DNA from: Octopus vulgaris
Lineage: Eukaryota
DNA length: 64,000 nucleotides
Direction of reading: 5' to 3'
NCBI GenBank assembly: GCA_951406725.2
Contig: OX597814.1
Coordinates: forward strand, 85,746,001 to 85,810,000
Both the position numbers and the translations under genes were made by a program. Positions 57,121-57,611 of this stretch are shown here, piece after piece. Below the pieces are notes generated by a model. The model saw only the letters and a list, made by a program, of their open reading frames with translations, was not told the origin of the DNA and did not search any database. Numbering within the stretch: the stretch's first letter is position 1; each line of letters begins with the position of its first letter.

Positions 57121-57603
57121 TTCAACAATTGAGGGTAAAATTAATTAATTAATCAATTTCACCAAGTATTCAGTATGCAAAGGGACCATTTAAGGCGAAT
57201 TCAAATTATTACATTATATAAAAGGGCTTAGTAAAATAAATTACTTTGCCGCATACTGAACTCATTAGAAATAGCAGCCAAAAAAAACTTTTTCAAAACC
57301 ATTTCCAATACTTATAGAAAATCTCTCTCATATAGTGTTTGCTCAATTCAACTCACGAAGTGAGTTCTGAGCTGATGATAGAAGTGTCGAGTTTGACTAA
57401 TCTTGAAACGTACGTTCTCAAATAACCTTTGCATTTGATTTTTTAATGTTTCTACCCTCATACTTTCGTGAGTTGAATTGAGCAAACACTATATGAGAGA
57501 GATTTTCTTTAAGTATTGGAAATGGTTTTGAAAAAGTTTTTTTTGGCTGCTATTTCTAATGAGTTCAGTATGCGGCAAAGTAATTTATTTTACTAAGCCC
57601 TTT

Positions 57604-57611
<8 letters not shown>
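57121..57611. mobile_element. Truncated head-to-head insertion related to the 566-bp family, in (TA)n
   Basis: 57121-57360 and ~57460-57611 align with 46626-46770 and 47098-47270 sequences; inverted arms. Confidence 0.85.
57368..57420 (+). ncRNA. Type I hammerhead ribozyme
   Basis: tgag CTGATGA TAGA agt GTCGAG TTTGAC taa TCTT GAAA CGTACG TT ctca. Confidence 0.82.

Follow-up and report, generated by a model that had tools for sequence, protein, structure and literature searches.

A Head-to-Head Hammerhead Repeat With Two Fixed 3′ End Points in Octopus vulgaris, Probably Mobilized by a Penelope-Like Enzyme

In the Octopus vulgaris DNA analyzed here (a stretch of 64,000 nt, hereafter the window), a hammerhead repeat is inserted as head-to-head copies with two fixed 3′ end points, S1 and S2. 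We consider it probable that a Penelope-like RT-endonuclease mobilized the repeat in trans, cutting both (TA)n strands and making one cDNA from each of two hairpin-marked sites of the same RNA. The repeat is a non-coding, hammerhead-bearing non-LTR retrozyme whose insertions bear a Penelope-type signature. For Penelope elements, the literature already describes one-sided tails, two start sites of RT, and a predicted dimer; new here are a strict rule of one end of each kind, evidence for a single source of both arms, a twin-hairpin cis-element, and longer tails.

The Two Insertions in the Window

Two insertions, at 46624-47889 (subfamily A) and 57121-57611 (subfamily B), share about 80% identity. 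Each consists of two repeat arms that lie head-to-head, point outwards, and are placed between (TA)n runs. The insertion at 46624-47889 has S1 (‘taagccc..tatataat’) as its left end and S2 (‘caattgttga.at’) as its right end, while at 57121-57611 the left end is S2 and the right end is S1. The distance from S1 to S2 along the repeat is about 90 nt. That the window holds two (TA)n-flanked insertions with the same two end sites had been recognized in an earlier note on this DNA, and both are confirmed. The note also held that the ends are swapped. The exchange of left and right is indeed seen, but as a mechanism it is rejected: since both arms of each insertion point outwards and reading the other strand aligns S1 and S2, the exchange reflects only the orientation of the whole insert.

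In the insertion at 57121-57611, the left arm passes through S1, carries the tail of about 90 nt, and ends at S2 without including a hammerhead. The features, including the helices P1, P2, and P4 discussed below, are as follows.

57098..57120, no strand: (TA)n target flank, left
57119..57132, minus strand: end site S2, 2 nt overlap with (AT)n
57121..57359, minus strand: left arm, subfamily B, 5′-truncated, about 244 nt (unit positions 94-337; locus L062)
57134..57163, minus strand: hairpin P4, immediately 5′ of S2
57169..57178, minus strand: P1 3′ strand, with a compensatory U-A / C-G change between the A and B window copies
57225..57260, minus strand: P1 5′ strand and hairpin P2 of the left arm
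57362..57611, plus strand: right arm, about 250 nt, starting just 5′ of the hammerhead and ending at S1, without tail
57366..57421, plus strand: type I hammerhead motif with CUGAUGA / GAAA core and palindromic stem III, predicted cleavage after GUU at 57416
57564..57573, plus strand: P1 long-range helix, 5′ strand, whose pairing partner lies in the tail and is absent from the right arm
57574..57599, plus strand: hairpin P2, immediately 5′ of S1
57601..57611, plus strand: end site S1, 2 nt overlap with (AT)n
57610..57634, no strand: (TA)n target flank, right
46624..47273, minus strand: sister insertion (subfamily A), left arm, about 1.16 units, ending at S1, hammerhead at 46815-46876
47266..47889, plus strand: sister insertion (subfamily A), right arm, about 1.1 units, ending at S2, hammerhead at 47548-47609

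Elsewhere in the window, ORFs of 301 and 258 aa at 44672 (minus strand, counted on the reverse strand) and 62042 (plus strand) resemble other retroelement fragments.

The Repeat Family and Its Hammerhead

The repeat unit of 557-568 bp is arranged head-to-tail, with up to four units per arm and a hammerhead in each unit; the GC content of window positions 46001-48000 is 0.33. No coding sequence was found in the unit, the 45 longest ORFs of the loci all lying outside units. Upstream of the ends in the examined loci, an ORF with RT and GIY-YIG endonuclease was likewise not found, and more tandem units are present there. Each DNA query of the 2.8-Gb host genome returned 1,679-2,189 first-look candidates (1770, 1999, 1749, 2189, 1679, and 1682), totals that differ from copy numbers, and 40 of these were scored. 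The loci contain more subfamilies at 68-85% identity, namely C, D1, D2, and the single copies E-H. Full units within one insertion differ by 0.4% (20 pairs) versus 2.8% between insertions (66 pairs), which fits a circular or homogeneous multimeric RNA. Contigs of four runs, which are not on record as RNA, cover the repeat, though neither RNA, strand, nor ends can be read from them. A target-site duplication is not discernible within (TA)n.

The family also clusters in the same microsatellites, as where an A-type insertion abuts a B-type insertion (L096:1560-3441), and repeat insertions adjoin other PLE insertions (L035, L093, L149, and L176). At L021:2169-2800, approximately 400 bp of flanking DNA is apparently duplicated around a composite insertion of the repeat.

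Comparison of 15 hammerhead variants from five subfamilies revealed an invariant core, 92% of cells paired, and two-sided change in 12 of 18 pairs; in stem I, such change affects five of six pairs. The pair 10.1-11.1 is unpaired in 11 of the 15 variants, subfamilies B and C carry uncompensated stem I changes, and comparison of the two window copies shows pairing lost in one pair of stem I and in the first pair of stem II. Covariation was counted as paired cells plus two-sided changes against shuffles that ignore relatedness; as the hammerhead set holds about three independent lineages, its shuffle counts are not P values. The inner stem II difference that had been noted earlier (GCTGA/TTGGC versus GTCGA/TTGAC) is as described and comprises one two-sided and one one-sided change. 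The covariation also claimed for stem III is rejected, because the difference between the window copies is a 2-nt loop indel and the three pairs are invariant in all 15 sequences. Selection on the hammerhead fold, the note’s wider claim, is nonetheless supported once the five subfamilies are compared, and self-cleavage is predicted from sequence. The short palindromic stem III corresponds to the dimer-type described in PMC4209133. An Rfam scan of the window gave no match at the gathering score, and a hammerhead pattern search of the genome gave one match, too few for sampling.

One End of Each Kind

Ends were counted in insertions retrieved with three queries containing neither end; loci of the same insertion were merged, and ends were classified by reading the script output. 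The resulting sample comprises 96 insertions (35 A, 31 B, and 30 C). A first sample of 30 loci was left out of the end counts since it had been selected for S2. The D1 and D2 samples (50 loci), whose queries spanned the tail, were used for structure only; many of these loci show S1 at the far end.

Two arms are present in 62 of the 96 insertions, head-to-head inverted and 5′-truncated, with a variable inversion point. Fifty-five of these 62 (14 A, 25 B, and 16 C) end at S1 on one side and S2 on the other, so that the tail occurs at one end only; none has two S1 or two S2 ends. Independent choice of site would be expected to give like ends in about half of the insertions, and 0.5^55 equals 3e-17. 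The remaining seven (L058, L090, L113, L119, L125, L127, and L139) combine one standard end with one off-site end. Six of them keep S2 as the intact end; the ends of L058 are S1 and a point 34 nt past P2. Single arms account for 33 of the 96 insertions and end at S1 (18), S2 (14), or off-site (1), and one further insertion (L124) is unclear. Outside the sample, one bystander copy in L096 appears to have S2 at both ends. The tail measures about 90 nt, not the 30-40 bp of published PLE insertion units.

Individual copies show further detail. At L087:1444-1798, the S2 arm is exactly the tail, stopping at the end of the S1 arm as if the second cDNA had hit the first primer. L059 and L136, which were counted as single-armed, carry approximately 5 nt of the S2 end before (TA)n on the 5′ side and may possess minimal second arms.

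A Common Source for the Two Arms

Between the opposite arms of an insertion, 0.69% (A, n = 24) and 0.60% (B, n = 22) of shared sites differ, while different insertions differ at 1.48% (A) and 2.31% (B). The 24 A insertions include some from the S2-selected first sample. Minor variants are common to both arms at 0.45% versus 0.06% (A) and 0.90% versus 0.20% (B), that is, 7 and 4.5 times more often than between insertions, a level reached by none of 2000 permutations. Of 37 arm pairs, 17 are not nested, each arm including sequence that the other lacks. The pair at 57121-57611 is among them, with the hammerhead in the S1 arm and the tail in the S2 arm. Arm lengths are uncorrelated (rho 0.07), and either arm may be longer, the S1 arm being so in 22 of 37 pairs. 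In six of the 37 pairs, the starts of the two arms lie no more than 12 nt apart on the unit, against 1.7 pairs expected (P = 0.006), as fold-back would produce.

These sequence comparisons suggest that both arms were likely copied from one source RNA. In view of the private variants common to both arms and the 17 of 37 non-nested pairs, the earlier proposal that both ends of the break prime cDNA is upheld as likely. Alternatively, the shared variants could stem from gene conversion between inverted arms, and the non-nested arms from later central deletion of the palindrome.

A Covarying Structure at the End Sites

Conservation within the unit is highest in the stretch containing S1 and S2, with 92% identity between A and B compared with 77% for the hammerhead and 64-72% for the rest. 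In the fold of 12 copies, a 9-bp long-range helix, P1, encloses hairpin P2, S1, and a short P3; hairpin P4 and then S2 lie 3′ of it. Across these 12 sequences, 95.5% of P1-P4 cells are paired versus 31-49% when the alignment is slid, and two-sided change occurs in 5 of 28 pairs. When sequences are folded singly, P2 is clear in 10 of 12 rows and P4 in all 12. The inner stem of P2, which MAFFT aligned poorly, changes in sequence and keeps its pairs in these per-sequence folds. In nearly all rows, both P2 and P4 open with GGY and close with RCC-C. Insertion ends fall mostly 9-23 nt past the base of the hairpin, with modes of 11-12 nt for S1 and 14 or 18 nt for S2. One natural sequence of the P1-P4 region was no more stable than its shuffles (z -0.86). 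An extra hairpin just 5′ of P1, at about unit positions 140-195 (window 57510-57560), appears by eye to be compensatory between subfamilies.

Microhomology With (TA)n

In the earlier note, microhomology to AU-alternating sites was proposed to determine where cDNA synthesis starts, and tabulating 3′ junctions against ATAT motifs was the check it suggested. Among 97 parsed ends, which include two of the L096 bystander copy, the mean overlap with (TA)n is 2.30 nt versus 1.62 nt in a uniform null (P = 0.0002). All of this excess lies at S2 (3.17 versus 1.55 and 2.41 versus 1.26 nt); at S1 there is no enrichment (1.67 versus 1.90 and 1.96 versus 1.83 nt), and a 6-nt match is used in only 4 of 47 ends compared with 22 for a 2-nt match. 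Overlap is absent in 25 of the 97 ends. No 3′ ends were found at 4-nt alternating motifs outside S1 and S2 (motifs 3/9 in A and 3/7 in B), and the fixed S1 junction of the second Hydra-type family (727 aa), introduced below, has zero overlap. In subfamily B, one substituted base at S2 shifts the most frequent junction by 4 nt, to the following TATA, which is used in 13 of 27 B ends; 17 of 23 A ends use ATAT. This shift indicates that pairing tunes the exact base at S2. Given the lack of excess at S1, the ends without overlap, the unused motifs, and the Hydra-family junction, microhomology is secondary: it shifts the S2 junction by a few bases without selecting the sites themselves. The end sites are better accounted for by position behind a hairpin than by microhomology.

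Penelope Families in the Host Genome

The one-of-each end rule is not peculiar to the retrozyme repeat, as it is also observed in two protein-coding Hydra-type families, whose inverted pairs were taken from hit lists for inversion, blind to their ends. The 3′ parts of one such PLE lie in the window at 14768-~20060 and ~20800-22610, with a long AT-rich 3′ region. It has the DKT, RW(K/R), and CxCx5C motifs and the C-terminal nuclease given for the Hydra clade (PMC8557442), together with a hammerhead at about 22300-22415 that has a very long stem II. Approximately 5,000 first-look candidates exist in the genome, and some copies have a 962-aa ORF with Asn-rich insertions. This family has two end points about 175 nt apart, and all seven inverted pairs with both ends seen have one of each; one more pair could not be resolved. 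In the second family (727 aa), one-of-each ends occur in eight of eight inverted pairs. This family (L287-L306, e.g., G000:C4:134759500-134769400) is young and forms 3.35-kb tandems with many intact-looking frames, a minimal hammerhead, and two exact ends 71 nt apart. In the Hydra-type families, the hairpin 5′ of the downstream site is clear and the one 5′ of the upstream site is weak.

An abundant Neptune-like PLE (L170:960-5770) has a 781-aa RT-GIY-YIG frame after an overlapping 479-aa frame, ends in (TA)n, and contains a hammerhead-like motif that seems to have a variant core. A search for an autonomous element with the repeat’s pLTR gave no match in this one Neptune-like and the two Hydra-like families, among the best 150 candidates scored per search. 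The ends of all three are unrelated to the repeat, matches nearby being neighboring insertions.

Proposed Mechanism and Alternatives

In the mechanism that we consider probable, a Penelope-type RT-endonuclease acting in trans would cut both strands of (TA)n, and each 3′ end would be extended, starting at a different hairpin-placed site of a single RNA. The template would be a multimeric or circular RNA, given that arms extend past the cleavage site through as many as four near-identical units. P2 and P4, with their common GGY...RCC-C base, may act as two docking sites that place the RT about 10-20 nt downstream, while 2-4 nt of pairing to the TA primer would nudge the S2 start. In a dimer, each protomer would use a different site and serve one DNA end, which is the simplest reason for the two ends never being alike. 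The two 5′-truncated cDNAs would then be joined head-to-head, or one would be lost to leave a single arm ending at S1 or S2. The enzyme would most likely be that of a Hydra-type element, a partnership that we infer only, since Hydra-type terminal sequences are dissimilar to the repeat unit. A broader proposal is offered tentatively: Penelope-type integration may generally be symmetric twin priming, in which one RNA with two hairpin docking sites is used by an RT-endonuclease dimer, each protomer extending one end of the double-strand cut, and the tail is the distance between the sites. The twin-hairpin element would then be a complete portable cis signal, enough for a ribozyme RNA that encodes no protein and is probably circular to hijack the enzyme.

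Priming by both DNA ends wherever the RNA has AU-alternating microhomology, as in the earlier note, is now very improbable. The overall excess of overlap and the 4-nt shift of the S2 junction in B favor it, but it offers no reason for one-of-each ends, and it is contradicted by the unenriched S1 with its neglected 6-nt match, the 25 of 97 ends lacking overlap, the alternating motifs without ends, and the Hydra-family S1; as a site selector, it is largely refuted. The main rival, which we judge unlikely, is single priming at S2, after which fold-back of the cDNA or an RT switch makes the inverted arm and an endonuclease resolves it at the AT-rich S1, leaving the tail as the resolution product. 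Such a route accounts for one-of-each ends and shared variants and likewise predicts microhomology at S2 and not S1; it is favored by the 6 of 37 arm pairs with the same start and by the intact S2 in six of the seven exceptions. EN-mediated resolution and self-priming have been suggested for PLEs (PMC8557442; PMC3846280). However, 18 of the 33 single-armed insertions have an S1 arm and lack an S2 arm, and 17 of 37 pairs are not nested, the S1 arm at 57121-57611 having a hammerhead missing from its S2 arm. The S2 arm of L087 that equals the tail also speaks against fold-back, as does the finding that purified PLE protein starts RT at both sites (PMC11167929).

Unlike ends would also be produced if a dimer held two RNA molecules asymmetrically, forcing each protomer to a different site, or if a few founders with S1 and S2 ends were copied at the DNA level; gene conversion could mimic a shared template. 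This pair of readings is improbable, as private variants are common to both arms. In addition, nearly every copy has its own inversion point and arm lengths, and the lengths of the two arms are uncorrelated, which argues that the copies are not founder duplicates.

Comparison With Known Systems

Formation of inverted ends in PLEs and movement of non-LTR retrozymes are both stated to be open in the literature (PMC8557442; PMC11167929; bioRxiv 10.64898/2026.07.22.740005, in the portions available). A near-absolute one-of-each rule in three unrelated families, with arms from one source, makes the inverted-end question directly assayable, and the known but unexplained one-sided PLE tail would sharpen into a testable rule. 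Retrozyme movement gains a mechanistic signature in place of co-occurrence, and the short covarying cis-element represents a minimal RNA for testing. If the broader proposal is true, the twin-hairpin element could direct two-ended RNA-templated insertion at TA repeats. A literature search, with subscription papers outside its coverage, found no paper stating the strict one-of-each rule, the single-template test, or the twin hairpins.

For the Poseidon PLE, both strands are cut and extended, RT starts at two internal sites that are not target-homologous and match the tail ends, and a dimer is predicted, the strands not differing in start site in vitro (PMC11167929). Genomic ends shown in the supplement of that paper may bear on the one-of-each rule. 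The tail of PLEs is described as 30-40 bp and ‘often’ at one end only, with (TA)n targeting (PMC8557442), or as optional, with self-priming as an idea (PMC3846280). As far as the available text of these three sources goes, the EN+ PLE insertion unit shares with the present repeat its inverted 5′-truncated head-to-head arms, partial tandems, hammerhead upstream of the end, two end points, one-sided tail, and AT-rich target. However, the repeat lacks an ORF, its tail is about 90 nt (71 and about 175 nt in the Hydra-type families) versus 30-40, its one-sidedness is near-absolute versus ‘often’ or ‘optional’, and each end lies behind its own hairpin of a covarying structure.

Hammerheads are known in PLEs and retrozymes (PMC4209133; PMC7229834), and retrozymes have been described as non-autonomous PLE derivatives whose mobilization mechanism is stated to be open (bioRxiv 10.64898/2026.07.22.740005); ribozymes are not mentioned in the accessible part of PMC13282606. 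Like the animal non-LTR retrozymes of PMC7229834 and the preprint, in their available portions, the repeat is a non-coding, low-GC tandem unit with a type I hammerhead per unit, dimer-type palindromic stem III, and thousands of dispersed copies. Its unit of 557-568 bp is inside the 51-972 bp range of the preprint and above the approximately 300 bp of PMC7229834. For the present repeat, the insertion ends carry the PLE signature, and multimers are apparently made at insertion; the available portions of those two papers contain no analysis of ends. Hydra clade PLEs (PMC8557442, available part) have the same (TA)n targeting and a canonical hammerhead. Two such families of the host genome share the end rule, although their terminal sequences are dissimilar to the repeat unit.

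In LINE-1 twin priming, the second target strand primes on the same RNA to give a 5′ inversion. One end there is the poly(A) end, the second site is variable and chosen by microhomology, and the arms barely overlap. The repeat, in contrast, has two fixed sites, widely overlapping arms, and no poly(A).
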